This document shows, one piece after another, positions 7,094 through 39,125 of a stretch of DNA of 64,000 bases. This stretch comes from a virus. The notes beneath the pieces are model-generated. The model worked only from the letters and a program-made list of their open reading frames with translations, did no database searches and had not been told where the DNA came from. Position numbers and translations under genes: made by a program. The number at the start of each line of letters is the position of its first letter. The first letter of the stretch is position 1. The stretch lies in IMG/VR virus record IMGVR_UViG_3300042464_000422, one strand, 5' to 3'.

Positions 7094-9157
7094 ATGGAAT
7101 TAGTAAGAATTTTATCAAAAGTTATTAAAGAAAACGTAAATATTAAAAAAATATTATTAGAATATCCCGAATCAACGGTTAAAAAACTATTGGATAAGTT
7201 TTCTGGAGAAACTGATGATACTGAGGATGAAATCAAGAAAACAATATCTGATTTTGAAAGATTTAAAGGTGGTTTTGCTATAGATGAAAAAAATGAACTT
7301 AAACAACTTAACGACGAGTTAAAAACTTTAGAACCGTCTTCTCAAGAGTATATAGATTTACAAAATAGAATTCGTGATTTAAACAAAAGAGTACAAGATA
7401 CCTTAGACATATTCAAGTACGACTATGAGAGTTTAAAAAATCTGACCGCAGATAAATCCACAAAACAAAAAACCAAAAAAGATCTTGAAAGTATAGCTCA
7501 AGAATTTGTTACCAAACATAAAGGTGCTGACTTACAATTAGTGAAAACAAATATTAAAAAATATTTTGAGTTAAAAACTTTGTTCCCTGAACAAAAATTA
7601 TTCAAAAGAGAGATAACTGAATTAACACCATCTCAGTTGAGTGATTTAGTTGGTAAATTCTTTTCTAAATTTAATGAAAGAGGGGAAAATGAGTTAACAA
7701 AAAGGATGACGGAAAAGTTTTCTAAAGAAAATCCGGATGATGATCCACTTACCGTAATATTACCAAGGGTTAAAAGATTTGTACATCACTTTGAATTAAT
7801 TCCATTAAACGCTAAATTAAGTGCGTTTATGACATTTGATGACTTTGAACATTTAGTTGATGGTTACACACCAATGGGTGAAGATGAATATAGTTTACCT
7901 GAAATTGATTTAGATGACGTTGATATTGCGTATGAAGATGATGACATATTAATTTTTGCTCCTGATGAAAAACAAAAATGTATTAACATTAGAAAAAAAC
8001 ACGCTCCTGATAGAAAATGGTGTACATCTTGGGAAGGATCAAGTAATTACTACTACAATTATAGATTAAATCAAAACTTAACATTATATTATGTTATTAG
8101 TAAGAATTTACCTGAATCTGATGTGAACTATGCGGTTGTTGTTCTTGTTGATAGATGGGGAGGAATGAGATTGGCGGATGGTACCAATTCAGGTAAATAT
8201 GCTGGTGGACAAGAAATTGATTGGTCTGAAATTATTAGAAAGGTCCCTACATTACGAGATAAGAAAGAATATCTTGAACCAAAACCATTTAGTAATGAGG
8301 ATCAAGAAAAAATGCAGAGATACAAATCTTATAACTTAAAAACTGATGACCCAATACAAGAGTTAGGTAGTGTTGAAGAAGTTGAATTATGGATAGAATT
8401 AAGAGGTCCTGACTTTAGTCATATGAGTAATGGTGATGTAATATTTGGTAAATTACCTGAAGAATTACAAAGAAAATATATTGGTTTAGGAACTGAGTTA
8501 AGTGGTGGGATGGTTAAAGTCCTTAAAGGTGGGGCACTAGGTTATTATGTGTCAAAGAAAAAAGAGAAGTTACTTACAAAGACATTAAGTCAGTTAACTT
8601 CAAGTGATATTGAAACAATTAAGACCTTAGAAATGAGACCTTATTTAAGAGAGTTAAAAAGAAAATTCTCTAAGGAGTTAGTTTCTAAGGATATGGGATC
8701 ATATGTTCAATTAGAATACCCTAAAGATGATGCGTCTAAATATGTTGCTCTATTTGGTTTTGAGGAATATTTTGATTCTATTCCTGATAATGTTGAATTT
8801 ATTAACATAGAGAATAAATCAAATGATGTGATTGCGGAGAAACTACCTGAATCAATAGGAAGATTTACTGAACTTAAAACATTGGTAATTGATAATTATA
8901 TTAAATCAATACCTGAAAGTATTGGAAATTGTAGACAATTGTCATTCTTAAATTTAACTAATAATAGTCAATTGGATAAATTGCCGGGATCTATTTCTAA
9001 ATTAACTTGTTTGGAGTTCTTCTCAATTATGGGATCAGATCCAAACATTAAAATACCTAAAAAATTAAAGGATTATATGACACCGGATGAAGATTTTTTC
9101 TTACTACACTTCCCTGAAAATATGAAAAAACACTGTACCGGAATGGTAGGGTTCTAA
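7094..9157 (+). CDS. member A of the four-paralog 'KWC-core' family, with a C-terminal leucine-rich-repeat extension (687 aa)
   Basis: Core HAPDRKWCTSWEGSSNYYYNYRL...LYYVISK aligns with the ORFs at 24282, 30142 and 38232. C-terminal LxxLxLxxN repeats (LPESIGRFTELKTLVIDN..IPESIGNCRQLSFLNLTNNSQLDKLPGSISKLTCLEF). Confidence 0.7.
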   Translation: MELVRILSKVIKENVNIKKILLEYPESTVKKLLDKFSGETDDTEDEIKKTISDFERFKGGFAIDEKNELKQLNDELKTLEPSSQEYIDLQNRIRDLNKRVQDTLDIFKYDYESLKNLTADKSTKQKTKKDLESIAQEFVTKHKGADLQLVKTNIKKYFELKTLFPEQKLFKREITELTPSQLSDLVGKFFSKFNERGENELTKRMTEKFSKENPDDDPLTVILPRVKRFVHHFELIPLNAKLSAFMTFDDFEHLVDGYTPMGEDEYSLPEIDLDDVDIAYEDDDILIFAPDEKQKCINIRKKHAPDRKWCTSWEGSSNYYYNYRLNQNLTLYYVISKNLPESDVNYAVVVLVDRWGGMRLADGTNSGKYAGGQEIDWSEIIRKVPTLRDKKEYLEPKPFSNEDQEKMQRYKSYNLKTDDPIQELGSVEEVELWIELRGPDFSHMSNGDVIFGKLPEELQRKYIGLGTELSGGMVKVLKGGALGYYVSKKKEKLLTKTLSQLTSSDIETIKTLEMRPYLRELKRKFSKELVSKDMGSYVQLEYPKDDASKYVALFGFEEYFDSIPDNVEFINIENKSNDVIAEKLPESIGRFTELKTLVIDNYIKSIPESIGNCRQLSFLNLTNNSQLDKLPGSISKLTCLEFFSIMGSDPNIKIPKKLKDYMTPDEDFFLLHFPENMKKHCTGMVGF

Positions 9158-9167
9158 ATTATAAAAT

Positions 9168-9464
9168 ATGAAAAACATAGATGTTGAGGTTTACATAAGT
9201 CAAATGATCACTTTTTTTGAAAACAATCCTAGTGATTTTATGGATTTAGTTGGTACCGCACAAAAAGATGAGTTCTTTCAAAAAATGAAAGAAAAATCAT
9301 TAGAAAATGTTGAAAAAGGTGAAGATTTTATTTTAACTAAACAACAAATTTTAGATATTGTATTAGAGTTAAAGGCACCTGAATTAACGGAAAAGTTAGG
9401 ATCAATTGAAAAAATTGAACAACATATTATGAAAACAAAATTCGGAGATATATTTTTAAATTAA
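9168..9464 (+). CDS. hypothetical protein
   Basis: 98-aa ORF. Confidence 0.55.
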   Translation: MKNIDVEVYISQMITFFENNPSDFMDLVGTAQKDEFFQKMKEKSLENVEKGEDFILTKQQILDIVLELKAPELTEKLGSIEKIEQHIMKTKFGDIFLN

Positions 9465-9505
9465 AAAAAAAGTAAAAAAGTTATTGTGGTTTTTAAAAAA
9501 AGCAT

Positions 9506-9513
9506 TATCTTTG
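9506..9513 (+). promoter_or_regulatory. Bacteroidetes sigma-A-type -7 element TATCTTTG (TTG at 9484-9486, 20 nt upstream)
   Basis: Matches the TAnnTTTG -7 consensus with a -33 TTG. It lies 24 nt upstream of the ATG at 9537. Confidence 0.55.
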
Positions 9514-9536
9514 TGGTATAATTAAAATTTATACTT

Positions 9537-10292
9537 ATGATTTACACACCAGAATTAATTAAACAAGTGGCACCATCGGTGTTCGCAACAGAACCTTCAA
9601 GTAAATTAACTAACAAATATTCTTTTGTACCTACGGATCAGGTAATTGAATATTTTGTAAGAGAAGGTTGGGATGTTTCTTCGGCACATCAAACGGGTAG
9701 AGGTATCCATGCTTTACATGAAGTTAAATTCCGTAACAAACAATTACCGGCAGTTGGTGATACCTTAGTTGAGGCGATTGTTCGTAACTCACACAATGGT
9801 ACTTCAGGGTTTTCTTTGGGGGCTGGTCTTTATCGTTTGGTTTGTAGTAATGGTCTTGTTGTCCCTACGTCTGTTTCTGAAAGATTTAATATTCGTCATA
9901 AGGCATTTACTTTAGATGAGGTTAAAGAATTGACTGAAAGTTTTAGTAAGAAATTACCTAAGATTGAACATTCTGTTGGTAGAATGATGGCAAGAACATT
10001 AACAATTGATGAGAAGATTGATTTTGTTGAAAAATCCTCTAAGTTTAGATGGTCAATGGGATCTGTACCTGCGGAGTTAAATATTGAAGAAATATTAACA
10101 CCTTTAAGACACGAAGATTCTGGAGATGACCTTTGGTCAACATTCAATATGGTTCAGGAAAAATTTGTCCGAGGGGGTATTGAGTATAAGACAAAAACAG
10201 GTCGTAGATCAAGTTTAAGAAGTTTGAAAAACATATCATCTTTGAATTATGTTAACACAAAACTTTGGGAAACTGCTGAATCGATGTTGTAA
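9537..10292 (+). CDS. DUF932-family protein (phage/plasmid-like)
   Basis: The N-terminal region (...SFVPTDQVIEYF...GIHALHEVKFRNKQLP...IVRNSHNGTSGFSLGAGLYRLVCSNGLVV) resembles DUF932. Flanked by a promoter and a terminator. Confidence 0.55.
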   Translation: MIYTPELIKQVAPSVFATEPSSKLTNKYSFVPTDQVIEYFVREGWDVSSAHQTGRGIHALHEVKFRNKQLPAVGDTLVEAIVRNSHNGTSGFSLGAGLYRLVCSNGLVVPTSVSERFNIRHKAFTLDEVKELTESFSKKLPKIEHSVGRMMARTLTIDEKIDFVEKSSKFRWSMGSVPAELNIEEILTPLRHEDSGDDLWSTFNMVQEKFVRGGIEYKTKTGRRSSLRSLKNISSLNYVNTKLWETAESML

Positions 10293-10299
10293 ATACTAT

Positions 10300-10322
10300 G
10301 GGGTCTACGGACCCCATTTTTT
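10300..10322 (+). terminator. rho-independent terminator (GGGGTC-TACG-GACCCC followed by ATTTTTT)
   Basis: Perfect 6-bp GC stem, a tetraloop and a T-tract immediately after the stop of 9537..10292. Confidence 0.75.
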
Positions 10323-10327
10323 AAATT

Positions 10328-10663
10328 ATGGAAGATAAATATTTTTTAAAGGAAAATGACTTTTTGGGGATCCTTAAGGATAAACACCAAAAATTATATG
10401 GTATAATAAAAGTTAATAGTCATCTTATTTTAACTCCTGATTTATTAATCCAAAAAGAATTTGATATCGAATATCTTAATGGGGATGAGTACAACGGGGA
10501 GATAAAATATAATGAAGGGATTTTTAGACATAGATCTGGTTTTTATATATATTTATCTAAGATTACGGCAACAGAATTAAATTTTAGTGTTAGAGTTTAT
10601 TATGATGTTGATCAATTAGAAGAGGTAAAATTCTTCATAAAAAATTTGTTAAAATTAAAGTAA
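10328..10663 (+). CDS. hypothetical protein
   Basis: 111-aa ORF. Confidence 0.5.
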   Translation: MEDKYFLKENDFLGILKDKHQKLYGIIKVNSHLILTPDLLIQKEFDIEYLNGDEYNGEIKYNEGIFRHRSGFYIYLSKITATELNFSVRVYYDVDQLEEVKFFIKNLLKLK

Positions 10664-10668
10664 AAAAA

Positions 10669-10983
10669 ATGGAAATTACGAGTGTAGAATTACAAGAAAA
10701 AATCAACAAAGGTGAAAAACTTATTATTGAGTTTTGGGCTGAATGGTGTGGGCCATGTAGAATGATGAAACCCATCTTTGAGAGAATCTCAACTGAAAAT
10801 ACATCTGACGTACAAATGTATACAATGAATGTTGATTTAAATAGAGAAGTTGGGGCATCGTTAGGTATTAGAAGTATCCCTACGATTAAGGTAATCAATT
10901 CTGGTGAAGTTATTGACACAAAAGTTGGTGTTCTTAACGAAGGACAACTAAAAGGTATGTTAACTGAATTAATTAATGGATAA
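10669..10983 (+). CDS. trxA: thioredoxin
   Basis: WAEWCGPCRMM active-site motif (WCGPC) in a thioredoxin-sized fold. Confidence 0.85.
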   Translation: MEITSVELQEKINKGEKLIIEFWAEWCGPCRMMKPIFERISTENTSDVQMYTMNVDLNREVGASLGIRSIPTIKVINSGEVIDTKVGVLNEGQLKGMLTELING

Positions 10984-11260
10984 GGTAGCGGTTCTTTTTA
11001 CGATGAAACAATGTCCTTTTTGTCATATGTTAAAAGAAATGTTAGACAAAGAGGGTGTTGAATATGTTGATCGTGACATACACGAATATGAGGAAGAGTA
11101 TAACTTATTTGTTGAAGTAACAGAAAATGAGTTTGTTCCTGCGTTTATGTTGATTGAATCACCTGAGAATAATCCTGTTACTAGATTATTTGCCCCTGAC
11201 CGAGATTTTGAAGATATCAATCAGGGTGCTAAAATCATTAAAGAATTCTTTGAAAGATAG
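10976..11260 (+). CDS. glutaredoxin-like protein (NrdH-like), CPFC active site
   Basis: TMKQCPFCHMLKEML is a CxxC redoxin motif in a 94-aa protein overlapping the thioredoxin gene. Confidence 0.6.
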   Translation: MDKVAVLFTMKQCPFCHMLKEMLDKEGVEYVDRDIHEYEEEYNLFVEVTENEFVPAFMLIESPENNPVTRLFAPDRDFEDINQGAKIIKEFFER

Positions 11261-15859: not shown

Positions 15860-16028
15860 AAGAATTTTCACAAAAGAACTTATTATAAGACACATTTATG
15901 ATATTGAAAGATATCTAAGTGTTGATGCGGCATTTTTGAGAGATGATTTCTCAAGAGATGTTTATAGAATGCATAATGAGGGAAAATCAAAAGAAGAAAT
16001 AATAAAATACATAAATGAAAACAAATGA
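15846..16028 (+). CDS. small hypothetical protein (60 aa)
   Basis: ATGA overlap with the glutamine synthetase start. Confidence 0.4.
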   Translation: MGFNKRIFTKELIIRHIYDIERYLSVDAAFLRDDFSRDVYRMHNEGKSKEEIIKYINENK

Positions 16029-23865: not shown

Positions 23866-23874
23866 TATATTTTG
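23866..23874 (+). promoter_or_regulatory. imperfect -7-like element TATATTTTG directly abutting the ATG (G, then 3 nt, then ATG)
   Basis: Same arrangement as the TATATTTG-N4-ATG sites at 40353 and 58346. Confidence 0.3.
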
Positions 23875-23877
23875 ATT

Positions 23878-24279
23878 ATGGAAAAAATATTATATATTGT
23901 TCGTGGAATTCCAGGATCCGGTAAATCCACATTTGCCAAATCTTTAGGTGGTACTCACTTTGAAACTGATATGTTTTTTATGAAAGACGGTGAGTATAAA
24001 TTTGATATGTTTAAACTTAAAGAGGCTCATAAATGGTGCCAGGATAGTGTTTATAGTGCAATGCTATTAAATCATACTGCGTTATTAAACAACGTAATTG
24101 TTGTTTCAAACACATTCACTCAAGAATGGGAAATGAAACCATATTTTGAAATGGCGGAATATTTTGAATATAAAATTTTTTCCATAATTGTGGAAAACAG
24201 GCACGGTGGTATTAACGAACATAATGTACCTGAAGAAACATTAACCTCAATGAGAAATCGGTTTGAAATAAATTTGTAG
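23878..24279 (+). CDS. P-loop kinase, polynucleotide-kinase-like (Walker A GIPGSGKST)
   Basis: YIVRGIPGSGKSTFAK parallels the T4 Pnkp kinase motif GCPGSGKST. The start is moved from the track's TTG to ATG 23878. Confidence 0.6.
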   Translation: MEKILYIVRGIPGSGKSTFAKSLGGTHFETDMFFMKDGEYKFDMFKLKEAHKWCQDSVYSAMLLNHTALLNNVIVVSNTFTQEWEMKPYFEMAEYFEYKIFSIIVENRHGGINEHNVPEETLTSMRNRFEINL

Positions 24280-24281: not shown

Positions 24282-25196
24282 ATGAGTAGATTAGATAAAT
24301 TAAAAGAACAACATCCTGAATTAAACATTACAATTATTGATCTTATTGGTATGATAGATCCTACCGATACTTACAAGTATTCGGAGTTTCTAATTAAAAT
24401 TTTGAAAAATTGGTATGATAATATGGACATACGATATGGAATTGGGGTTGATCTTTTTGGTGATGAGAATGTAGAGACCTTAAATGAGTTTGAAAAACAT
24501 TGTAAGGCAAAAAGAATTGAAAAAAACGATATTAGTCAACATACCACCTTTATAACTTTACAAAGTGAGGTTAATAAGGCTAAAGAAATTCTTAGATTGA
24601 AAGAGTTAGAAAAACAAACCAAAAAATTACTTGAACACGGAGAATGGTTGGTTATGATACCATTAAGTTATGAAGCGGCGAAGTTATATGGGGCAAATAC
24701 TAAATGGTGTATAACTGAATTAAAATATTGGAATAACTATGTTGAGAATTATAAAATTATTTATGTGATCAATAGAAGTACGGATGTTAAATACGCTATC
24801 TCTAGAGATAAAACGGATAATAAAGATTTAAAAGCGTGGTTGTCTGATGATAGTGAGACAAGTCCATTACTATTAAATATACCTCAGGAAATATGGTCGG
24901 TGGTAATACCTGAATTACAAAAAGAAGAATCAATATGGGATTTACTACCAGATAATAATAAGATTATTCCACATAATTTGGGTTCGGATAACATCCTTGA
25001 TAGAGTGAGAAATTTATTAATCAGCAATAGTACGGGCACAACAAATTTGACCGGAGGTTATATGGGTGACATAAATACTGATTTCCGCACTGACGCATAT
25101 AAAACTTACAGTACATATGGTACATATGGAGATGATTTTGAAAAGTATTTAAGAGAATATATGTATACGTCAGATGAATCAATTGATTTACCTTAA
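24282..25196 (+). CDS. member B of the 'KWC-core' paralog family
   Basis: Core LSYEAAKLYGANTKWCITELKYWNNYVENYKIIYVINR. Confidence 0.6.
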   Translation: MSRLDKLKEQHPELNITIIDLIGMIDPTDTYKYSEFLIKILKNWYDNMDIRYGIGVDLFGDENVETLNEFEKHCKAKRIEKNDISQHTTFITLQSEVNKAKEILRLKELEKQTKKLLEHGEWLVMIPLSYEAAKLYGANTKWCITELKYWNNYVENYKIIYVINRSTDVKYAISRDKTDNKDLKAWLSDDSETSPLLLNIPQEIWSVVIPELQKEESIWDLLPDNNKIIPHNLGSDNILDRVRNLLISNSTGTTNLTGGYMGDINTDFRTDAYKTYSTYGTYGDDFEKYLREYMYTSDESIDLP

Positions 25197-25207: not shown

Positions 25208-25861
25208 ATGAAATTTGATAAAATATTAACAACAGGTAGAGTGTGGGTCACATCGGATCCACATTACAACCATAAAAACATTTGTAGAGGGGTAACGAAT
25301 TGGAGAACCCAAGATGGTGAGATTCCTATTAATAGTACAAGAGATTTTCACACAATAGATCTAATGAATAATGTTTTAGTGGATAACATAAACTCAAAAG
25401 TTGGACAGAACGACACATTAATTATATTGGGTGATGTTGCGTTCGGTGGTTTTGAAAGTATTAGAATTTTCTTGGATCGTTTGGTGTGTAAGAATATTCA
25501 TTTAGTTATGGGTAATCATGATCAACACATAAGAAACAATAGAGATAACATCAAAGATATGTTTTTATCTGTGAGCGATTACCTCCAAGTTAATATTGAC
25601 GGTGCCGATTTTGTTATGACACATTATCCATTTGAAAGTTGGAATGGTCTTAATAAAGGTGTTATACACCTTCACGGACACGTTCACTTACCTGCAAGTA
25701 AAAAGTGGGGTAAAGGTAAACGATTAGATGTTGGTGTTGATGGTAACAATCTATCACCATATAGTATAACTGAAATTGTACATATGATGGATAAACGAGA
25801 TATCGTTCCTGAAATGGAAGGTGATCACCATTTAGATGATTTAATTGGGGTTATTGGATAA
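25208..25861 (+). CDS. calcineurin-like metallophosphoesterase
   Basis: Motifs SDPHYNH (DxH), ILGDVAFGG (GD), GNHD, HGHVH. Confidence 0.75.
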   Translation: MKFDKILTTGRVWVTSDPHYNHKNICRGVTNWRTQDGEIPINSTRDFHTIDLMNNVLVDNINSKVGQNDTLIILGDVAFGGFESIRIFLDRLVCKNIHLVMGNHDQHIRNNRDNIKDMFLSVSDYLQVNIDGADFVMTHYPFESWNGLNKGVIHLHGHVHLPASKKWGKGKRLDVGVDGNNLSPYSITEIVHMMDKRDIVPEMEGDHHLDDLIGVIG

Positions 25862-27960: not shown

Positions 27961-27971
27961 AAAAAATAAAA

Positions 27972-28415
27972 ATGGAAAAACAAAAATATAGAATTTATTT
28001 GGATGATGTAAGAACACCGGTTAGTCCTAACAATGCATTGGTGGATGGTATTCCTGAGTGGACTGTGGTTCGTTCTTACGACGAGTTCGTACAAAAGATA
28101 AACTCAATTGGTTTGGAGAACATTGAGTTAATCTCATTAGATCACGACTTGGGTGACAGTGCTATGTCAGAATGGTTATATGGTGTTACTAAAAACTATT
28201 CAATTAACTACGATAACATTACCGAAAAAACCGGTATGGATTGTACTAAATGGTTAGTGAATCAATGGTTAGATGGTAAACCTGTTGTTGAAGTTGTAGT
28301 TCATTCCGCAAACGCTGTTGGTAGTGCAAATATGATGGGTTACATTAACAATTACCGACACCTCAATCGTTTACCACAAAATTGTGTGAGAGTACAAATA
28401 GAACATACAGTATAA
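27972..28415 (+). CDS. hypothetical protein
   Basis: 147-aa ORF. Confidence 0.5.
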   Translation: MEKQKYRIYLDDVRTPVSPNNALVDGIPEWTVVRSYDEFVQKINSIGLENIELISLDHDLGDSAMSEWLYGVTKNYSINYDNITEKTGMDCTKWLVNQWLDGKPVVEVVVHSANAVGSANMMGYINNYRHLNRLPQNCVRVQIEHTV

Positions 28416-28425
28416 AAATAAAGTT

Positions 28426-28686: not shown

Positions 28687-28689
28687 AAA

Positions 28690-29823
28690 ATGGAAAATTT
28701 AAATAGTGTATGTTATGTTGGTGTGATCGGAGAGATATTACCAATAGATGGAGCGGATAACATTGAACTTGCATTGGTTGGTGGTTGGCAAGCCATTACT
28801 AAGAAAGGTGAATATAGTGTTGGTGATAAGGTTGTTGTTGCAACTACCGATGCGGTAATCCCTGTTGAATTATCTGATTTAATGGGCGTAACTAATTACC
28901 TAAGAAAAGGTCAAAGAGTTCGCACCGTTAAACTTCGTAAAGTTTACTCTGAGTGTTTGTTAATACCATTCAAATACTTGGCACCAAGGTCTTTGGAGAA
29001 CAATGTAAATGAAGGTCACGACATGATGGAACTGTTAGGTATCACTAAATATGAACCACCAGTTAAGATGGTTGAGATGAGTGTTGGTGGAAGAAAATTC
29101 AAATACCACCAAAACCCGAACTTCCACATTTACTACAAATTCCCAAATATGAAGAACGTACCTGATATGTTCAATGAGGAGGATGAAGTATGTATCACTC
29201 GTAAGTTACACGGAACCAATGCTCGTTACGGTATTGTGAGAAAGAAAAAACTTTCAATCCTTGATAAGATTAAAGGGTGGTTTGGTAATCAATGGGTTGG
29301 TTACGAATACGTTTATGGATCCCACAACGTTGAGAAGGGATCTGACTCTCAAGGTTTTTATGCAACTGATGTGTGGAAAACAGTTGCGGAAAAATATGAT
29401 ATCCGTAAAAAACTTTGGGATCACGTTAAAGATACTTTTGATCCTAATGATGTTGGTTCAGGATTTATCATCTATGGTGAAATCTATGGACACGGAATAC
29501 AAAAGAATTACGACTATGGTTTAACTGAAATCCGTTTTGCGGGATTTGACGTTGAGGTTGATGGATCTTATGTTGATAACATTTACCAATCAACTCATTT
29601 TAAATGTTTAGGTTTAGAAGAAGTTGAAACTTTATATTCAGGTCTTTGGTCAAAAGAAGAACAAGATAAATATGTGTTTAATAACAACATTCAAGGAACT
29701 AAAGTTCCTCACGAAGGTATTGTTGTAAAATGTTTATCTGGTAATCGTCATAAGATTGGAAAAGTAATCAACCCTGATTATTTAATTTACGGTGAAAAAA
29801 ATAACGTAGGTGACTCCCATTAA
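28690..29823 (+). CDS. ATP-dependent RNA ligase (Rnl2-like nucleotidyltransferase) with an N-terminal OB/tRNA-binding-like domain
   Basis: Motif I RKLHGTNARYG (KxHGxN), motif III FIIYGEIYG, motif V PHEGIVVK. The N-terminus (ILPIDGADNIELALVGGWQAI) resembles Trbp111-type OB folds. Confidence 0.7.
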   Translation: MENLNSVCYVGVIGEILPIDGADNIELALVGGWQAITKKGEYSVGDKVVVATTDAVIPVELSDLMGVTNYLRKGQRVRTVKLRKVYSECLLIPFKYLAPRSLENNVNEGHDMMELLGITKYEPPVKMVEMSVGGRKFKYHQNPNFHIYYKFPNMKNVPDMFNEEDEVCITRKLHGTNARYGIVRKKKLSILDKIKGWFGNQWVGYEYVYGSHNVEKGSDSQGFYATDVWKTVAEKYDIRKKLWDHVKDTFDPNDVGSGFIIYGEIYGHGIQKNYDYGLTEIRFAGFDVEVDGSYVDNIYQSTHFKCLGLEEVETLYSGLWSKEEQDKYVFNNNIQGTKVPHEGIVVKCLSGNRHKIGKVINPDYLIYGEKNNVGDSH

Positions 29824-29846: not shown

Positions 29847-29867
29847 TTATATTTAAAAAAATAACAA

Positions 29868-30140: not shown

Positions 30141-30141
30141 T

Positions 30142-31242
30142 ATGGGAATAAAACATTTAATTCAGGAAAATCCTAATATGGATATAAATTTGGTTCGTTT
30201 AATATCTAAACTTGATCCAAGCAAAACAAATAAACTAACACCATTTATGGTAAAAGTTTTTAAAAAAAGAATGGTTGATTTTGAAAAAGAAATCACTCAA
30301 GAGGAAGGTATTTATGGATTAAGATATGAATATGTTAATAGTAAGATGAGTGATGCAAGTGGTTTTGAAAAATTAATATTAACTTGGGTTATAGATCAAT
30401 TTAGAGCGGAAAATATTGAAATCTTAAGAGAATTTAATGAGGTTTTGGATAAAGGTTTAGTGGATCAAAATGACATATCTAAATACGAAAATTTTGAAGA
30501 GATTACAAATCAATTGTCGGTTGCTAGAACAAAAGATTTATTGAAGAAATCTAGAAAAGAAATCTCTGTTGTCTATGAAGATGATGAAATTATGATGCTT
30601 AAACCATTATCTTTTGAGGCATCTTTGAAATATGGTGCTGGAACAAAATGGTGTACAGCAATGAAAAATGAACCTGAATATTTTTATAGATACTCTAAAA
30701 ATGGTATTTTAATCTATCTTATTAATAAAGAAACCGGTAGAAAATTTGGGTGTCATTCGGAAAGATATAATGATAATAGAGTTCAAATCTTTAATGAGAT
30801 TGATCAGGTTATTGATTCTTTCCATATGGGTTTACCATATGAAAAATTAACTATCTTAATGGATTTAATGGATTCAGAAAAATATGGTGTTAATTCAGAG
30901 TTATTTAGTGAAGAGGAAAAAAGTAAGTATGGGTTAAGAGTGAATAAATATTCGGTAGATGAGGTGATGGATATGCCAACTGAAGAAATGCCAGTGAATG
31001 AAGAATTACCAAGATTGATGCCAAGATTGAACAGACGAATCCCAATTACGGATCAAGAAATGAGAATAATGGAAGACCCAATGGTAGAAGAGCAAGGACC
31101 GATAGAAATTGAATACAATATGGCTGTACCTGATAGAATGTTAATGAGAGAGATTCAAAAAGAAATTGATTCCATTATGGTTCTTGATCGTGCGGGAGCT
31201 TTCGCTCATCTTGAAAATGAAGAGGGTGACACATTACCATGA
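30142..31242 (+). CDS. member C of the 'KWC-core' paralog family
   Basis: Core LSFEASLKYGAGTKWCTAMKNEPEYFYRYSKNGILIYLINKETGRKFG. Confidence 0.6.
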   Translation: MGIKHLIQENPNMDINLVRLISKLDPSKTNKLTPFMVKVFKKRMVDFEKEITQEEGIYGLRYEYVNSKMSDASGFEKLILTWVIDQFRAENIEILREFNEVLDKGLVDQNDISKYENFEEITNQLSVARTKDLLKKSRKEISVVYEDDEIMMLKPLSFEASLKYGAGTKWCTAMKNEPEYFYRYSKNGILIYLINKETGRKFGCHSERYNDNRVQIFNEIDQVIDSFHMGLPYEKLTILMDLMDSEKYGVNSELFSEEEKSKYGLRVNKYSVDEVMDMPTEEMPVNEELPRLMPRLNRRIPITDQEMRIMEDPMVEEQGPIEIEYNMAVPDRMLMREIQKEIDSIMVLDRAGAFAHLENEEGDTLP

Positions 31243-31285
31243 TTAGATTACGAAGATAAACAAGGATAAAAATAAATAAAATAAT

Positions 31286-31489
31286 ATGCAAACACTAACA
31301 TTTAACACAACAAAAAGAGAAGTTAAAGTAGTTAACTCTCAAGGGGATACGATTTATAGTCAAGATAACGTCCCAACGGTAAAAGTAATGGAACAACACT
31401 ATGAAGTTTATGTTGAGGATTTTGAAGGAAAAAAAATCCCAACATTTAGAGCCCCAATTGCTAACACAAATATGTTTATTCAAAAATAG
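31286..31489 (+). CDS. small hypothetical protein
   Basis: 67-aa ORF. Confidence 0.4.
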   Translation: MQTLTFNTTKREVKVVNSQGDTIYSQDNVPTVKVMEQHYEVYVEDFEGKKIPTFRAPIANTNMFIQK

Positions 31490-31495
31490 TAAGTC

Positions 31496-31786
31496 ATGGA
31501 TGAACCTCAAGAACGTATTAACAAAATGTATTTGAGAATAAATGGTGAAATAACAGATCGTGAAATGCCACCACCTCCACCTAAAAAAGGTAAAACTAAA
31601 ACTTTTACTCTTGATGAAAATCAAGTTAAAAAGTTGGAGGAGTGGCAGAGCCACATAAAGGCAATCTATGGGAGTTATGGAAACTACGAATATACATTCT
31701 CAAGTAGTGGTATAGGACAAAATGTCGTAGTATACAGCGAATTAGCTGACACAGAATTAGATTTGACAGACGTTGATAGTTGGTAA
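31496..31786 (+). CDS. hypothetical protein
   Basis: 96-aa ORF. Confidence 0.45.
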   Translation: MDEPQERINKMYLRINGEITDREMPPPPPKKGKTKTFTLDENQVKKLEEWQSHIKAIYGSYGNYEYTFSSSGIGQNVVVYSELADTELDLTDVDSW

Positions 31787-31787
31787 A

Positions 31788-31810
31788 CTGACAAAATGTC
31801 AGTATTTTAC
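31788..31810 (+). terminator. weak hairpin (CTGACA-AAA-TGTCAG) followed by TATTTTA
   Basis: 6-bp stem and short U-run upstream of dnaK. Confidence 0.3.
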
Positions 31811-31886
31811 GAATGGAACATTTTTTGGGAAACTTGGTACGACTGAAAAGTAATAATAAATAAAAAATAAAAACTAAAAATTAAAA

Positions 31887-33743
31887 ATGGGAAAAATAAT
31901 TGGAATTGACTTGGGAACAACTAACTCGTGTGTTGCCGTGATGGAAGGAAAGGAACCTGTAGTTATTACAAATAACGAAGGTAAACGAACAACGCCATCT
32001 GTAATCGGATTCATTAAAGATGGTGAAAGAAAGATTGGGGATCCGGCTAAACGACAAGCGGTAACCAATCCTGAAAAAACCGTACATTCAATTAAACGAT
32101 TTATGGGAACAAGTTTTACTGAATCTAAAAATGAGGTAAAGAAAGTTCCTTATAAAGTTGTAAAAGGAGATGGTGGATCACCAAGAGTGGATATTGATAA
32201 ACGACAGTATTCTCCGCAGGAACTTTCCGCAATGGTTTTACAAAAAATGAAACAAACTGCTGAGGATTATTTGGGTGAGACGGTTACTGAGGCGGTTATT
32301 ACGGTACCAGCGTATTTTAATGATGCTCAACGACAGGCAACCAAAGAAGCGGGTGAGATTGCGGGTTTGGAAGTAAAACGTATCATTAATGAGCCAACAG
32401 CGGCGGCATTAGCATATGGTTTAGATAAAATGTCTAAAGATATGGTAGTGGTTGTGTTTGACTGTGGTGGTGGTACACACGATGTTTCTATTCTTGAATT
32501 AGGTGATGGTGTATTTGAAGTATTGTCTACTGATGGTGATACTCACTTAGGTGGTGATGACTTTGATCAGGTTATTATTGAATGGTTAGCAAATGAATTC
32601 AAAGATGAGAATGGAATTGATGTGACCAAGGATCCGATGGCGTTACAACGTTTACGAGAAGCGGCAGAAAAGGCAAAAGTTGAATTATCTTCAACCTCAT
32701 CAACGGAAATTAATTTACCGTATTTGATGCCGGTAGATGGGATGCCAAAACACTTGGTTAGAACTTTATCAAAATCTAAATTTGAACAACTGGCAGATTC
32801 ATTAATCAAACGAACTATTGAACCTTGTAAGACAGCGTTGAAAAATGCTAAGATGGATGTGTCTGATGTTGATGAAATTATCTTGGTTGGAGGTACAACA
32901 AGAATTCCGGCAATTCAAGAAGCGGTTAAACAATTCTTTGGTAAGGAACCATCTAAAGGTGTTAATCCTGATGAGGTAGTTGCTTTAGGTGCGGCGATCC
33001 AAGGTGGTGTACTTGCTGGTGATGTTAAAGATGTCTTATTATTAGATGTGACTCCATTATCTTTAGGTATTGAAACTATGGGTGGAGTTATGACTAAATT
33101 GATTGATGCTAACACCACGATCCCAACTAAAAAATCTCAGGTGTTCTCAACGGCAGTAGATAATCAACCAACAGTTGAGATCCACGTACTTCAGGGAGAA
33201 CGAGCAATGGCAAAAGATAATAAAACCATTGGTAAGTTCAATTTAGATGGTGTTCCACCAGCGATGAGAGGTGTTCCACAAATTGAGGTTACGTTTGATA
33301 TTGATGCGAATGGTATTATCAATGTTTCTGCAATGGATAAAGGTACAAACAAACAACAAACAATTCGTATCGAAGCGTCCTCAGGTTTATCAAAAGAAGA
33401 GATTGAGAAAATGAAACAAGAAGCTGAGTTAAATGCCGAACAGGATAAAAAACTCAGAGAAGATGCTGAAGTTCTAAACACGGCTGATGGTACAATCTTC
33501 CAAACTGAGAAGTCAATCAAAGATTTGGAAGATAAATTAACTGAAGAACAAAAGAGTGAACTTGATGGATTACTTGGAACGTTAAAAGAATCTTACGCAA
33601 AAAAAGACATTGAGAAGATTAATCAAGATATTGAAAATCTTAATAGTCAGTTCCACCATATTAGTCAATCATTGTACGAACAAACTACAACTGAAGAAGG
33701 TAATGATGCTCCGTCTGACGTTGAATTTGAAGAAGTACTTTAA
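31887..33743 (+). CDS. dnaK: molecular chaperone DnaK (Hsp70)
   Basis: Collinear Hsp70 signatures: [36 protein letters not shown], the substrate-binding domain and a C-terminal lid. Confidence 0.95.
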
Positions 33744-33832
33744 AAAAGTTATCGGGGCCTCAAAAATAAATTGGGGTCCCGCTTGACTTAACGGTATTTA
33801 TAACTTATACTTTCATACAAAAAATATTTATT

Positions 33833-34267
33833 ATGACAATTAAGCAAGCTCTGAAACAAAAAAATAAACTGATCAAACAGATTGGTGAGAACACAAAGTT
33901 GATGCAAGAATACAACTCAATAGAGGTTGGAAATGAAAGACCATATAGTTCAATTATACTATTGGCTAAAATCTCTGAAGACACAAAAGAGTTGGCTAAT
34001 TTGAAATCAAAAATCCATATTGCCAACACACCGGTATTGGAAGACATCTTTTTGATGTCAGAGTTGAAATCCATTGCTCAATCACTTAAAAAAATGGATT
34101 GTACCGAAGGTAAATCAAATCGTGATCGTTACCGATTAGAAAGTGAGAGTGTTAAAACCTCAGAAATCTCTTTGGTTAGACGAAATGAAACAATTAAAGA
34201 GTTGGAAACTCGTATTGAAGAAATCCAAGATCGTTTGGATGTATTCAACGCAACCACTCAAATCTAA
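33833..34267 (+). CDS. hypothetical protein (coiled-coil)
   Basis: 144-aa ORF; not recognisably GrpE. Confidence 0.5.
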   Translation: MTIKQALKQKNKLIKQIGENTKLMQEYNSIEVGNERPYSSIILLAKISEDTKELANLKSKIHIANTPVLEDIFLMSELKSIAQSLKKMDCTEGKSNRDRYRLESESVKTSEISLVRRNETIKELETRIEEIQDRLDVFNATTQI

Positions 34268-34444
34268 TATAGTTTGTGGATAGGGTCAAAATGATATGTG
34301 TTCTATACATGGAGGCTGCATAGTCGGATAATTGATAGTGATAACGTAATGGTCCCAAACTCATTATTCAAATACTCAAAAGTCATTTGATTAAAATTTA
34401 AAACTCTTGTCTACATAATTTTAATTCTTGAAACAAACTATACG

Positions 34445-34474
34445 AAACCCTCACAGAAATGTGGGGGTTTTTTT
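34445..34474 (+). terminator. rho-independent terminator with a GNRA loop (aaaccctcaca-GAAA-tgtgggggttt followed by T7)
   Basis: 8-11-bp stem, a GAAA tetraloop and a T-tract, about 180 nt downstream of the nearest stop. Confidence 0.75.
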
Positions 34475-34508
34475 GACTATATGATTTTTATTTATTATTA
34501 TTACATAA

Positions 34509-34790
34509 ATGAACTCAAACAAGAAAATATTAATTAAAAAGTTTCTTTCCTTACACTATAGTAATTTAGAGTATAGTCCTAAACGAATGCTGTATTATAA
34601 GGAAGGTAAAGTTTATTTTGAGTATCAACCAAAAGACGAAATAATATTTTTGAATTTTAAGTTAATGGTTGAACCAATGATAAGAACACTTAGAATTGAT
34701 GATAAAGATCCTGTCATACTAACAGAAGTTTATAAAGTGATGGAAGAATGGTTTGAGGAGAAGTTTAATATAATAGGTGCAATAACATAA
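34509..34790 (+). CDS. hypothetical protein
   Basis: 93-aa ORF. Confidence 0.45.
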   Translation: MNSNKKILIKKFLSLHYSNLEYSPKRMLYYKEGKVYFEYQPKDEIIFLNFKLMVEPMIRTLRIDDKDPVILTEVYKVMEEWFEEKFNIIGAIT

Positions 34791-34793
34791 AGT

Positions 34794-35378
34794 ATGAAAG
34801 TATTATTTTTAGATCATGATGGTGTAATTTGTCTCTCCAATAATTGGGGTGGACGAACAAAGAAATGGGCGAAATATCGTTCTGAAAATCCTGAATCCTC
34901 CTCAAATCTAAAAGAGGGTCCGGTGTCTGTACGATTTGATGACTTTGATCAAAAGGCAATTAAGATCCTTAATGAGATTGTTGAAGAGACAGGATGTGAA
35001 ATTGTGGTAAGTTCAGATTGGAAGCTACACGCAACTCTTGAAGAACTTGGTGAATATTATGAATTACATGGGATAAGTAAAAAACCAATTGCGTTAACAC
35101 CAAATATACAAGATTGTAAAGTTCATGGTAATTTATTTATATGGTCACCAAGATGGGATTTAGAACAAACACGAACTATTGAAATCAGACAATATCTTCA
35201 GGATCATCCTGAGGTTACACATTGGGTTTCTGTTGATGATTTAAATATGGGTAAAATTGGTGAGGATTGGAAAGATGTATGGGCGATAGATAATTTTGTT
35301 TTAACGCCAAGATCAAATGAGGGAATAAAACAGAGCGGAGTTAAAGAAAAAATATTAAAGTTTTTGAAAAATGACTAA
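34794..35378 (+). CDS. HAD-like hydrolase, possibly 5'(3')-deoxyribonucleotidase-type
   Basis: N-terminal VLFLDHDGVI (HAD motif I DxDG); weak overall resemblance to the NT5C family. Confidence 0.4.
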   Translation: MKVLFLDHDGVICLSNNWGGRTKKWAKYRSENPESSSNLKEGPVSVRFDDFDQKAIKILNEIVEETGCEIVVSSDWKLHATLEELGEYYELHGISKKPIALTPNIQDCKVHGNLFIWSPRWDLEQTRTIEIRQYLQDHPEVTHWVSVDDLNMGKIGEDWKDVWAIDNFVLTPRSNEGIKQSGVKEKILKFLKND

Positions 35379-37342: not shown

Positions 37343-37359
37343 TCTAATAATATAATTTT

Positions 37360-37596
37360 ATGGACCCAATCAAAGCAAATTTATTAAGTCAAACTTTGGA
37401 AATGACATACACCCAAGAGGCGGATTGTTGTACAACTGAGGAACAATATTTAACGATCAAAACAGATAATGGTGGTGGTGGTGATTTTTATGTCATTGAG
37501 ACAAAAAGATGGGCATTTGATACTGTTGAAGAGATCATTGAATTATTAAATCAATTTAAAGAAAAACACCTTAAAATAAAAGAAGAAAATCTATGA
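37360..37596 (+). CDS. hypothetical protein
   Basis: 78-aa ORF. Confidence 0.45.
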   Translation: MDPIKANLLSQTLEMTYTQEADCCTTEEQYLTIKTDNGGGGDFYVIETKRWAFDTVEEIIELLNQFKEKHLKIKEENL

Positions 37597-37835
37597 AAAA
37601 GTTAATATTAATTACTTTAGTTGGGATAGTATTGTTTTCTTGTAAGAGAAAAGAATATAAATATGAAATTCACGGGAAAGTTTATATCCCAACCTCAGGG
37701 TTGAACCCAATGCATGATGCAATATGGTATACGGATACAATTAGTTTTGATGGTGACACATTATATTATTTTAATAGTGATGGGTCTGAAGTAAGAATTT
37801 ATCCACCGTATATTTTAAAAGATAATTCAAAATGA
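37593..37835 (+). CDS. putative lipoprotein (lipobox VLFSC)
   Basis: MKKLILITLVGIVLFSCKRK. Confidence 0.5.
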   Translation: MKKLILITLVGIVLFSCKRKEYKYEIHGKVYIPTSGLNPMHDAIWYTDTISFDGDTLYYFNSDGSEVRIYPPYILKDNSK

Positions 37836-38245
37836 AGATAGGAATAACTTGCTCCTGTTTTGATTTATTTCATGCGGGACACGTAAAGATGTTGGAGGAA
37901 GCTAAAACTCAATGTGATTATTTAATTATTGCGTTACAAACAGATCCAACAATTGATAGACCAGAAAAAAACAAACCAATACAATCGGTCGTTGAAAGAT
38001 ACATTCAACTTAAAGGTTGTAAATTCGTTGATGAGATCATACCATACGAAACTGAAAAAGATTTAGAAGATCTTTTTAACACATTAAAATTAGATGTTAG
38101 AATTATTGGTGAGGACTATAAGGGTAAAGATTTCACCGCAAAACAAATATGTTTAGATAGGAGTATTGTGTTATACTACAATGAAAGAAAACACAATTTC
38201 TCAAGTACAGAACTTAAAAAAAGAATAAACAATGGCAAAAATTGA
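37832..38245 (+). CDS. cytidylyltransferase-like nucleotidyltransferase (HxGH; TagD/RfaE-domain-II type)
   Basis: GITCSCFDLFHAGHVKML matches the (H/T)xGH motif of the cytidylyltransferase family. Confidence 0.7.
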   Translation: MKIGITCSCFDLFHAGHVKMLEEAKTQCDYLIIALQTDPTIDRPEKNKPIQSVVERYIQLKGCKFVDEIIPYETEKDLEDLFNTLKLDVRIIGEDYKGKDFTAKQICLDRSIVLYYNERKHNFSSTELKKRINNGKN

Positions 38246-39125
38246 TGAACTAAGAAAAAAATACCCAAAAGTTAATAAATCTACGGGTGATAAATTTTTT
38301 GAGGGAGATAAAACACCAACCAAAAAATATCTTGAATTTATGTTTAAGATGTGGTCAACAAGAAATGAACGTCCAGTTGAGGGAGTATCGGCACCTCAGT
38401 ATGTTAAAATAATTAATGAGTTTGATCAGTTGTTACCATATATTCAAAATAAAGACATTTATAGTAGTCAATATAAATCTATGATGCAGTTATTTAGGAT
38501 AGTTGAAAATGCTAAAGCATTAAAAGAGGAAAATGAATTTATTCGTGAAGATCATATTGATGTTTTAATTGAAAATGATGATTATCTTTTAATTAGTCCT
38601 TTAACTTTAAAGGGATCCCTAAAATATGGTGCGGATACTAAATGGTGTACCGCCAGTAAATCAAGTTCTTATCAGTTTACAAGTTACACTAAAGACGGTT
38701 ATTTGTTTTATTTGATCTCAAAAAAAGAAAGAGCTAAAAATTATAATAAGGTTGCATTTTATTCACGTAGTAAAAATGAACACTTGACCACATATTATAC
38801 AATTTATAATCAAATTGATACTGAAGTTAATGAGCAAAAAGTTATTTTGAATGATTGGACTATGTTTGAACTATTTGAAATAATGGCTAAAATAAGAGTT
38901 TATACTTATGAAAAGTATATAATTGAAAAGGCTAAAACTGATGTTGAAAAAACTGTTAATGTTCTGAAATCAGTTAATTTAGATGAATTTTTACGACAAG
39001 TTAATTTGTTGGAGAAATACGGAGAAAGTGGGAAAATAGAAGGAAAAGATGAATTGGAAAAAGTAATTCAAACTTTAAGTAAAAAAACAGAAGATTTATT
39101 TGGTAAATCTAAAATTAATGTGTAG
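38232..39125 (+). CDS. member D of the 'KWC-core' paralog family
   Basis: Core LTLKGSLKYGADTKWCTASKSSSYQFTSYTKDGYLFYLISKKERAKNY. Confidence 0.6.
   Translation: MAKIDELRKKYPKVNKSTGDKFFEGDKTPTKKYLEFMFKMWSTRNERPVEGVSAPQYVKIINEFDQLLPYIQNKDIYSSQYKSMMQLFRIVENAKALKEENEFIREDHIDVLIENDDYLLISPLTLKGSLKYGADTKWCTASKSSSYQFTSYTKDGYLFYLISKKERAKNYNKVAFYSRSKNEHLTTYYTIYNQIDTEVNEQKVILNDWTMFELFEIMAKIRVYTYEKYIIEKAKTDVEKTVNVLKSVNLDEFLRQVNLLEKYGESGKIEGKDELEKVIQTLSKKTEDLFGKSKINV

Follow-up and report, generated by a model that had tools for sequence, protein, structure and literature searches.

Four ancient paralogues of a large virus-restricted protein family, with a conserved Trp-Cys head and variable tails, in one viral DNA segment rich in RNA-repair genes

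The 64,000-nucleotide stretch of viral DNA analysed here (the window; IMG/VR record IMGVR_UViG_3300042464_000422) encodes four proteins, copies A to D, which by sequence comparison are ancient true paralogues of one family. The family is very large and essentially restricted to viruses. Its members combine a conserved head, for which structure comparison gave no recognisable relative among solved structures, with variable tails, and copies B, C and D lie amongst genes for RNA repair.

Four paralogues in one window

One collinear module recurs in all four ORFs (Table 1). It opens with an N-terminal helical domain and continues into an alpha/beta core, in which the pattern P...KWC...Y...Y.I is invariant. 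The paralogy, proposed in a preliminary description of this DNA, holds in a proper multiple alignment: MAFFT leaves L, E, P, K-W-C, Y, Y, I and D invariant in the four cores. Pairwise BLASTP likewise bears it out, joining B to C (E = 3e-24), C to D (2e-17) and B to D (3e-13), and copy A to C (4e-8), D (1e-7) and B (8e-3). A profile made from metagenomic homologues, free of any window sequence, retrieved C (5e-97), B (2e-82), D (1e-39) and A (5e-4) from the 512 six-frame ORFs of the window and matched no other ORF amongst them. A second profile, built separately from 32 orthologues of copy A, was aligned with the family profile by hhalign over 101 columns (probability 96%, P = 3.7e-9). Taken together, the two profile results identify copy A as a genuine yet divergent member of the family. 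No fifth copy was found in the window. An all-against-all BLAST of the window gave, besides this family, a tandem glycosyltransferase pair as the sole paralogues.

The N-terminal segment said to be common to three members is real for B, C and D, and according to profile alignment the helices just ahead of the core are also kept in copy A. The core pattern first given was correct in its collinearity but not in every residue, since copy A lacks 'PLS.EA..KYGA.T' and has 'APDEKQKCINIRKKHAPDRKWCTS' with a four-residue insertion, 'APDR' standing in place of the 'YG..T' motif.

Table 1. Family members and associated genes in the window (loci are the 75 non-close viral loci of the linkage count)
Feature	Position (nt)	Strand	Remarks
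Copy A	7094..9157	+	687 aa ORF; divergent family member
Layout of copy A		+	Helical N-terminus aa 1-266; core 272-385; helical middle 400-528; LRR 537-671 (AF2, profiles)
Core domain of copy A	7907..8248	+	aa 272-385 (hhalign, AF2); K308-W309-C310 at nt 8015-8023
LRR array of copy A	8702..9106	+	aa 537-671; consensus LxxLxLxxN.LxxLPxSIGxL
Pnk-like P-loop kinase (AAA_33)	23872..24279	+	Pfam 4e-8; directly upstream of B; 19/75 loci
Copy B	24282..25196	+	304 aa ORF; family member; core aa ~110-215 (nt 24609-24926), KWC at nt 24702-24710
Calcineurin-like metallophosphoesterase	25208..25861	+	Pfam 7.8e-8; directly downstream of B; 28/75 loci
cREC_REC, cyclic-phosphate-processing receiver domain protein	27972..28415	+	Pfam 5e-21; 9/75 loci
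RNA ligase (RNA_ligase + PHA02142 OB-fold)	28690..29823	+	Pfam 2e-13; 6/75 loci
Copy C	30142..31242	+	366 aa ORF; family member; core aa 140-265 (nt 30559-30936), KWC at nt 30646-30654
HAD_SAK_2, HAD domain of 'Swiss Army Knife' RNA repair proteins	34794..35378	+	Pfam 4.7e-21; 16/75 loci
Cytidylyltransferase-like nucleotidyltransferase	37832..38245	+	Pfam 5.7e-16; overlaps start of D
Copy D	38232..39125	+	297 aa ORF; family member; core aa ~106-205 (nt 38547-38846), KWC at nt 38640-38648
SPFH/Band-7 protein	39383..40285	+	Pfam 2.4e-15; downstream of D; 8/75 loci

Family size and architectures

At E <= 1e-3 the family comprises 10,017 representatives of 50% identity clusters, 6,517 of them at E <= 1e-10, and IMG/VR holds at least 448 confirmed matches. 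A search of 185,579 species genomes gave only four family loci, all in Bacteroidota MAGs. Members are found mainly on low-GC viral contigs, several of which exceed 200 kb. A few isolated jumbo phages also carry them; they occur in Salicola phage SCTP-2, CcrBL9 and PA5oct. The SCTP-2 genome has five to six matching places by tblastn, with three family ORFs within 12 kb.

Homologous heads are joined to LRR_14-type LRR, BspA LRR_5, LRV/HEAT, ankyrin or WG repeats, others to long variable acidic tails, and a GNAT fusion was also seen. One module with such varied repeat domains and acidic tails fits the earlier idea that the copies address different targets, and the four would have diversified in function. 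Bacterial LRR effectors such as XopL and the ankyrin/F-box proteins of poxviruses and giant viruses are analogous, with a conserved module, repeats and many paralogues per genome. They differ in that they have no sequence or fold relationship to the family, and the head carries no E3-ligase or F-box motif (matches to Cedratvirus F-box proteins are weak, with E values of only 0.06-0.08).

The C-terminus of copy A consists of tandem LxxLxLxxN units of 20-30 residues. About four repeats are clear in the sequence and five to six strand turns in the AF2 model, where residues 537-671 form a short strand every ~20-30 residues with pLDDT 85-94. Pfam LRR_14 matches with E = 1.1e-8 and 34.7 bits, under its gathering score of 40, LRR_4 and LRR_8 match weakly, and the NCBIfam LRR regions of XopAE, XopL and XopAC match at 4e-9 to 8e-7; a database protein identical to copy A bears a precomputed PF23598 assignment. 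These data support the LRR array noted in the preliminary description, and the repeats may well serve protein-protein targeting. The supposition that an LRR-bearing copy is unusual does not hold within the phage group, in which copy A has at least 241 homologues; among the 120 listed, nearly all are full-length, with 49-100% identity. Of the four copies, A shows the strongest conservation.

The conserved head

The head spans about 260 residues, a helical domain bearing a DP(S/T)xTxKY motif and then the alpha/beta core, in which AF2 places a beta-hairpin, three helices and a three-stranded sheet in that order. The AF2 models of copy C (pLDDT 77, with residues 1-270 confident) and copy A (pLDDT 80.8) have an identical order of head elements. 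In copy C the helical domain covers residues 1-139; beyond the core, residues 273-330 are predicted to be disordered and residues 332-355 to form a helix. Copy B also has an N-terminal helical domain, and its variable acidic C-terminal tail ends in the residues DLP.

The invariant Trp-Cys pair opens the second helix of the core, and the residues P, S, Y, G, T, K, Y, Y, K and D around it are near-invariant. In an alignment of 133 sequences the near-invariant positions are K31, F98, D111, Y115, P155, L156, S161, Y164, G165, T168, K169, W170, C171, Y184, L190, Y192, K201 and D221; no conserved His to partner the Cys is present in the invariant or near-invariant columns. Neither an RNA-binding motif nor a known catalytic one was recognised in the family. 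Papain-like and transglutaminase-like cysteine hydrolases pair a catalytic Cys at a helix N-terminus with conserved His and Asp/Asn on the strands that follow; this assignment was considered and rejected, since the Cys does lie at a helix start but there is no conserved His and no structural match.

The core had been described as unassignable to any known family. This stands for Pfam, NCBIfam and the PDB, in which no family covers the core and no confident profile match to a well-characterised domain was found, but not for PHROGs. The profile phrog_17056 matches the core in C (4.4e-14), D (8.1e-9) and B (2.1e-6), phrog_28193 matches C (1.3e-10), and the PHROGs matches of these three copies over the core span 4e-14 to 1e-4; copy A matches neither profile. 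Both are automated clusters of the same family and carry no functional annotation.

Probable distant relationship to PcfJ

The uncharacterised PcfJ domain is probably related to the head, though very distantly. The type member of the PcfJ-like domain (PF14284) is PcfJ of the Enterococcus faecalis plasmid pCF10, and the domain is also common in Herelleviridae phages. PcfJ is the sole Pfam family matched repeatedly by family members, a link that is weak and recurrent. With the Pfam model (gathering threshold 25 bits), copies A to D gave no match at E <= 1 and 38 close members none at E <= 10. Three of the 133 members reach E < 0.1. P0114 scores 1.7e-4, and two distant multi-copy members exceed the gathering score (P0049, 30.6 bits; P0058, 27.4 bits). 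With our own PcfJ HMM, some 20 of the 195 family proteins scored E < 1, most of them in the same register, as against 6 of 955 shuffled decoys. Alignment of the family (133 sequences) with a 12-sequence PcfJ alignment by hhalign covers 47 columns in the expected register, with only P = 0.047. The family profile does not retrieve pCF10 PcfJ, no solved PcfJ structure was found, and a 'PcfJ-like protein' model in BFVD is weakly similar to the copy C model (E = 0.12).

The elements come in one order in both: helix, beta-hairpin with Pro at its end, helix, [H/W]-C at a helix start, Tyr helix and three strands. Both are uncharacterised and borne on mobile elements. The PcfJ motif is P...EG..L.HCV..Y, whereas the family has W-C(T/I) preceded by YG..TK. 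PcfJ is C-terminal in Firmicutes proteins of 450-800 aa; the family head lies at the N-terminus and brings a DPxxTxKY helical domain of its own. PcfJ belongs to Firmicutes plasmids and phages, in contrast to the low-GC contigs and Gram-negative-host jumbo phages of the family.

The invariant Trp-Cys at a helix start, together with about a dozen near-invariant polar residues, might suggest a family of stand-alone, cysteine-dependent effectors of host takeover or anti-defence. The head would supply a new catalytic domain (Cys, perhaps with the conserved Lys and Asp), and choice of substrate would fall to the tail, by analogy with bacterial effectors that couple LRRs to a catalytic domain. Such an assignment draws also on the Cys being the only polar residue shared with the H-C motif of PcfJ, on the resemblance of the copy A LRR to those of the type III effectors XopL, XopAE and XopAC, and on the AcrIIA9-family gene that adjoins pcfJ on pCF10. 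We regard the effector assignment as unlikely.

RNA-repair genes around copies B, C and D

Copy B starts 2 nt past the kinase gene and ends 11 nt ahead of the phosphoesterase gene, and the Pfam matches confirm its reported position between a Pnk-like kinase and a phosphoesterase. The RNA ligase gene is separated from copy C by 318 nt, which contain one 90-aa ORF. Copy D sits between the nucleotidyltransferase gene, which it overlaps by 14 nt, and the SPFH protein gene; its arrangement with the former is kept only in close relatives. Copy A is outside the island, following a Dam methylase gene in the window and DnaJ in a relative.

Linkage was counted for window ORFs of at least 90 aa lying within 10 kb of a family gene. 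The metallophosphoesterase, the kinase and HAD_SAK_2 head the count, and cREC_REC is joint fourth with five other window ORFs. The preliminary description had suggested looking for homologues near RNA-repair genes in other phages; such a gene lies near a family gene in 47 of 80 loci, corresponding to 20 of 33 family clusters (50% identity), the loci being phylogenetically related. Direct adjacency (<= 1 kb) to a kinase, phosphoesterase or ligase gene is rare, occurring in only three of the 33 clusters each. Many members reside in unrelated gene contexts outside RNA-repair islands, and the more distant contexts include PTH2, IF3, NADAR and HD genes. Because the loci come from related phages, the linkage may represent inherited synteny rather than functional coupling.

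Phage RNA-repair cassettes are exemplified by T4, in which Pnkp and Rnl1 act against the PrrC anticodon nuclease. Burroughs and Aravind reportedly set out in 2016 a kinase/phosphatase/ligase/scaffold 'syntax' of RNA repair. The window resembles such cassettes in having a P-loop kinase, metallophosphoesterase, cREC_REC protein, RNA ligase, HAD_SAK_2 protein, nucleotidyltransferase and SPFH protein, with copies B, C and D interleaved amongst them and a linkage that recurs in other phages. It differs in that no described RNA-repair system is known to include the family, and no RNA-related domain was detected in the family proteins.

Multiple dispersed copies wedged tightly between conserved genes might instead be selfish insertions, spreading like free-standing homing-endonuclease genes and serving no phage function. 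Copy number does differ among related contigs, and copy B splits a kinase/phosphatase pair that other systems have as a single protein. However, each of A to D has orthologues and syntenic positions in close relatives, the homologues of copy A are numerous and nearly all full-length amongst those listed, and no nuclease family was detected with Pfam, NCBIfam or PHROGs. The strong residue conservation, moreover, points to selection on the protein. We consider selfish insertion very improbable.

Proposed function

Copies B, C and D lie in an island of RNA end-healing and sealing enzymes, and this linkage recurs in diverse related phages; we therefore prefer a mechanism based on RNA repair. Our proposal, which is tentative and made with somewhat less than even confidence, is that these proteins, with their conserved head and variable targeting tails, serve as scaffolds or accessory subunits in the RNA-repair or anti-ribonuclease counter-defence machinery of the phage. 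All heads would perform one common job, either binding a shared partner or ligand or using the cysteine for catalysis, and the tails would steer them to different partners. Some homologues carry two to five heads in one polypeptide, and five tandem heads are more usual for a binding module than for an enzyme. The tail is a helical domain plus LRR in copy A, and is acidic and largely disordered or helical in the others. The accessory or scaffold role would fall to B, C and D, and copy A would represent a core-like gene that bears an LRR and is conserved in the phage group.

One member is a poor fit to a role in RNA repair. Gp205 (EST35_0205) of the cultured Pseudomonas jumbo phage PA5oct, a protein of 482 aa with ~25% identity and a tail unlike those of the window copies, matches the family in hmmsearch (2.7e-13) and tblastn (8e-10). 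It is annotated as virion-associated from mass spectrometry ('structural protein, ESI-MS/MS') and lies inside a run of virion proteins; 93 gene products have been detected in PA5oct virions (PMC7318152). The family might accordingly consist of virion-associated proteins, the head acting as particle anchor or packaging signal and the tail acting in the host after ejection or as an adhesin. LRR, LRV, WG and ankyrin tails are typical binding domains, copy A is as strongly conserved as expected of a structural gene, and certain DGR target genes are reported to have a PcfJ-like motif ahead of their variable region (PMC5758913). This proteomic support concerns a single member, though, and jumbo-phage virion proteomes hold many non-structural proteins. 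Copies A to D are set amid methylase, kinase, ligase, chaperone and nucleotidyltransferase genes, with no recognisable head or tail gene adjoining, and in B and C the acidic, disordered tail does not resemble an adhesin. A virion role for the family appears doubtful to us.

For the preferred reading, as part of RNA repair or counter-defence, the siting of the family amongst RNA-repair genes provides a testable lead on its function.

The four-copy family

The four ORFs named in the preliminary description, here called A, B, C and D, are present as it gave them, and the observation of a four-member family is confirmed. Their cores are collinear on alignment, with invariant P, K-W-C, Y, Y, I and D, and pairwise BLASTP supports the paralogy (B-C, 3e-24; C-D, 2e-17; B-D, 3e-13; A-C, 4e-8; A-D, 1e-7; A-B, 8e-3). 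A profile built only from metagenomic homologues matches C at 5e-97, B at 2e-82, D at 1e-39 and A at 5e-4, and a family-profile search of all window ORFs recovers A-D only, with no fifth copy. B, C and D also share an N-terminal domain, as had been proposed for three of the members. A is the outlier. It retains YEDD, P, WCT, Y..Y and L.Y.I.K, but the family's 'EAS.KYG..T' is replaced by 'KCINIRKKHAPDR'. A profile of 32 A orthologues aligns with a family profile made without the window sequences over 101 columns (96% probability, P=3.7e-9), and this alignment takes in the helices preceding the core. Apart from A-D, an all-versus-all comparison reveals just one pair of paralogues in the window, two tandemly duplicated glycosyltransferase family 9 (heptosyltransferase-like) genes (41672-42589 and 42592-43515, 54% identity).

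Coordinates of the family ORFs and of the genes of the RNA-repair island in the window
Feature	Coordinates	Length	Remarks
A	7094-9157	687 aa	family ORF
Pnk-like P-loop kinase	23872-24279		RNA-repair island; B begins 2 nt after
B	24282-25196	304 aa	family ORF
Metallophosphoesterase	25208-25861		RNA-repair island; begins 11 nt past the end of B
cREC_REC protein	27972-28415		RNA-repair island
RNA ligase with PHA02142 OB-fold	28690-29823		RNA-repair island; one small ORF between ligase and C
C	30142-31242	366 aa	family ORF
HAD_SAK_2 protein	34794-35378		RNA-repair island
D	38232-39125	297 aa	family ORF

Distribution and age of the family

A word-indexed search returned just 44 short metagenomic matches. 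Exhaustive HMMER scanning of 1.84 billion representatives, each standing for a cluster at 50% identity, raised the count to 10,017 proteins at E<=1e-3, of which 6,517 reach E<=1e-10. Most are 270-450 aa in length; some reach 1,000-1,844 aa and carry two to five copies of the head, by which we mean the conserved N-terminal helical domain together with the core. IMG/VR holds at least 448 confirmed matches. The 80 IMG/VR loci examined, located with a four-sequence core alignment, are all of about 30% GC, with one to three family copies per 20 kb, on contigs of up to 335 kb. Among cultured phages, members occur in Caulobacter phage CcrBL9, the PA5oct group and Salicola phage SCTP-2, the last with five or six genomic match sites (tblastn) and three family ORFs within one 12 kb stretch. 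Structure searching places the family in giant-virus metagenome bins as well. When 185,579 species genomes were scanned with a sequence pattern, only four loci emerged, each on a contig of a Bacteroidota MAG; given the narrow pattern, this is a lower bound. The family as a whole is very large, virus-restricted and uncharacterised. The annotation of one member, PA5oct gp205, records its detection in virions by mass spectrometry, which would suit virion-associated or ejected proteins; we regard that as an unlikely account of the family.

Each window copy has orthologues of its own (P0046 for B, P0035 for C, P0002 and P0003 for D, P0212 onward for A) and the duplications must therefore be old. 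Since these orthologues are syntenic in close relatives and are under strong purifying selection, it is very unlikely that the copies are selfish insertions.

The best conserved copy is A, with at least 241 homologues. Of the 120 listed, on contigs of up to 290 kb, almost every one is full-length (about 645-690 aa; 49-100% identity) and most carry the leucine-rich repeat (LRR). Gene order downstream of A is conserved. A D12-class N6-adenine methyltransferase gene (6213-7052) lies directly upstream, and a DUF932 protein, a thioredoxin (10669-10983) and a glutaredoxin (10976-11260) are encoded downstream (9537-11260). A 224-kb metagenomic relative (L095 12255-13189) shows synteny for this thioredoxin/glutaredoxin pair and for the genes beyond it.

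The window itself has a GC content of 30% and nearly every gene on the plus strand. Its products include an Hsp70, an RNA ligase, a glutamine-synthetase-like protein, a thymidylate synthase and a protein with a sorting domain for type IX secretion, a content consistent with a large phage infecting Bacteroidota. The last of these, a 636-aa protein with a cohesin domain (48816-50726), has its sorting domain (Por_Secre_tail) at the C-terminus, and this tag points to the Bacteroidota host. A 575-aa protein with C-type lectin and LamG domains is encoded at 53731-55458. The glutamine-synthetase-like protein (Gln-synt_N and Gln-synt_C) is phage-encoded at 16025-17149. Residues 8-376 of the 377-aa thymidylate synthase (46088-47221) cover the entire 266-position Pfam profile, so that about 100 additional residues are present as insertions. 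Megablast of window positions 24-32 kb against 50,697 phage records gave no nucleotide-level match, and neither tRNA genes (ARAGORN) nor Rfam families at gathering score were found across the 64-kb window. A promoter scan was uninformative (88 sites observed, 91 expected).

Architecture of head and tail

The AlphaFold2 model of C is confident for residues 1-270. A helical domain, with helices up to residue 139, precedes an alpha/beta core that opens with strands 141-146 and 150-155. Helices 158-164, 169-173 (beginning at K-W-C) and 178-186 follow, then strands 188-195, 201-207 and 214-217; two or three helices close the core, and the stretch 273-330 is disordered. In the model of A (pLDDT 81) the core elements occur in the same order at 278-383. 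The helical N-terminus in front of them is longer, and behind them come a second helical domain (400-528) and, at 537-671, an LRR solenoid. The C-terminal LRR attributed to A is thus seen in the model. Profile matches agree: Pfam LRR_14 scores 1.1e-8, short of its gathering score, and the LRR segments of the XopAE, XopL and XopAC models match as well.

Three residues, P155, W170 and C171 (C numbering), never vary across 133 family sequences, and K31, F98, D111, Y115, L156, S161, Y164, G165, T168, K169, Y184, L190, Y192, K201 and D221 are at least 90% conserved. We consider it unlikely that the proteins are stand-alone cysteine enzymes directed at host targets.

The remainder of the protein, the tail, is variable. 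The head is joined to LRR_14-type LRRs in A and its orthologues, to BspA-type LRR_5 in P0068 and P0069 (the latter also with a GNAT domain), to LRV/HEAT repeats in P0074, to WG beta-repeats in P0045 and P0100, to ankyrin repeats in one BFVD entry and elsewhere to variable acidic tails. The occurrence of the same head on so many different tails points to a constant head and a tail for targeting. The largest such protein, of 1,844 aa with five tandem heads and WG repeats, is encoded on an 18-kb metagenomic contig (L093 5035-13497), adjoining Cas6, Cas7fv-like and DEAD-helicase genes.

Certain C-terminal endings recur across otherwise unrelated tails and might be docking or processing motifs. The signal is weak, with LP in 15 of 210 tails (as DDLP, DELP or IDLP; for example B, 25179-25193, and C, 31228-31239) and QG or RG in 19 of 210. 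We set the idea aside because the C orthologue in close relatives continues beyond 'LP'.

A probable distant relationship to PcfJ

The preliminary description could place the core in no known family, and our searches agree: single proteins and a 133-sequence profile found no match for the core in Pfam, NCBIfam or PDB sequences. The only recurrent Pfam link is to PcfJ (PF14284), whose type member lies on Enterococcus faecalis plasmid pCF10. Two distant multi-head members, P0049 and P0058, exceed the PcfJ gathering score, and P0114 and three of the 133 other members match weakly. We aligned pCF10 PcfJ with ten phage homologues taken from phage tblastn matches. Against the family, hhalign registers P...(E/Y)G...[H/W]C...Y...strand over 47 columns at only P=0.047, and at E<1 the PcfJ HMM picks up about 10% of the family proteins, for the most part in that register, versus 0.6% of shuffled decoys. 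The family profile found no match in pCF10 PcfJ, and a word-indexed search with the PcfJ domain of pCF10 retrieved close Enterococcus relatives only. The tie is probably a very distant superfamily relationship rather than membership, and the family is best regarded as a new, architecturally distinct branch.

A literature search for PcfJ function found no paper. In pCF10 the pcfJ gene shares 10 nt with a gene whose annotation places it in the AcrIIA9 family of Cas9 inhibitors (L002 15874-17984), an arrangement that hints at an anti-defence role for the PcfJ superfamily. A DpnD/PcfM gene is also near.

Gene neighbourhood

A phage RNA-repair gene island spans 23872-35378; two of its products, cREC_REC and HAD_SAK_2, belong to Pfam families that take their names from RNA repair. 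The region's two strongest terminator-like hairpins (23259-23283 and 40304-40332) bound a wider stretch that contains B, C and D. D overlaps a cytidylyltransferase-like gene and is followed by a gene for an SPFH protein; the intervening D-to-SPFH sequence folds no better than shuffled sequence (z=-1.2). A 184-aa protein encoded at 36752-37306 matches PHROGs annotated 2OG-Fe(II) oxygenase and DNA endonuclease.

Window genes recurring within 10 kb of a family gene were counted at 75 IMG/VR loci, leaving out close relatives. The most recurrent are the phosphoesterase (28), the kinase (19), HAD_SAK_2 (16) and cREC_REC (9, tied with five other window ORFs); SPFH is found at eight loci and the ligase at six. 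The co-occurrence with RNA-repair genes in other phages that had been suggested for checking is therefore found: in 20 of 33 family clusters, defined at 50% identity, the locus includes one or more of the phosphoesterase, kinase, HAD_SAK_2, cREC_REC and ligase genes. Because these loci come from related phages, the linkage may be inherited synteny. A kinase, phosphoesterase or ligase gene lies within 1 kb of the family gene in only three of the 33 clusters, and direct adjacency is confined to a few lineages. More distant members neighbour PTH2, IF3, NADAR or HD genes, and others still are in unrelated contexts, one beside Cas6/Cas7-like genes.

A full-length Hsp70/DnaK (Pfam, 859 bits; 31887-33743) is encoded just downstream of C, and DnaJ immediately upstream of the A orthologue in the 224-kb relative (L095 8847-9782). 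We rejected a chaperone partnership as a general link because Hsp70 is near family genes only in the five close relatives and ClpB in only one sub-clade.

Implications for function

The family, its architecture and its gene linkage are observed, and the earlier interpretation of them is partly supported. The reading that we favour, tentatively, is that the heads would all carry out one shared step, either binding or cysteine-dependent, and the tails would supply specificity, with B, C and D acting as accessory or scaffold subunits of a phage RNA-repair or anti-ribonuclease module. Its main weakness is the relatedness of the loci. A bolder version, which we consider distinctly improbable, holds that the head is a structurally unprecedented domain defining a new and very widespread class of phage counter-defence factors. 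The tail of each paralogue would recognize a different host RNA-targeting nuclease or damaged RNA, and the protein would then recruit kinase, phosphatase and ligase or neutralize the nuclease through the Trp-Cys pocket. If so, head proteins would be the missing 'specificity subunit' of viral RNA repair and a first function would be assigned to the PcfJ superfamily of plasmids and phages.

Jumbo phages each carry hundreds of genes of unknown function. Here, a family of some 10,000 clusters at 50% identity, with several copies per genome, many binding-repeat partners and no relative of known structure, is reproducibly linked to RNA end-healing and sealing enzymes. This gives an anonymous ORF family a concrete hypothesis, that of accessory or specificity factors in viral RNA repair or counter-defence, which can be tested in the culturable phages PA5oct, CcrBL9 and SCTP-2. 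The function of the family, once found, would probably also be informative about PcfJ, a domain found in conjugative plasmids and Firmicutes phages that has long gone uncharacterised.
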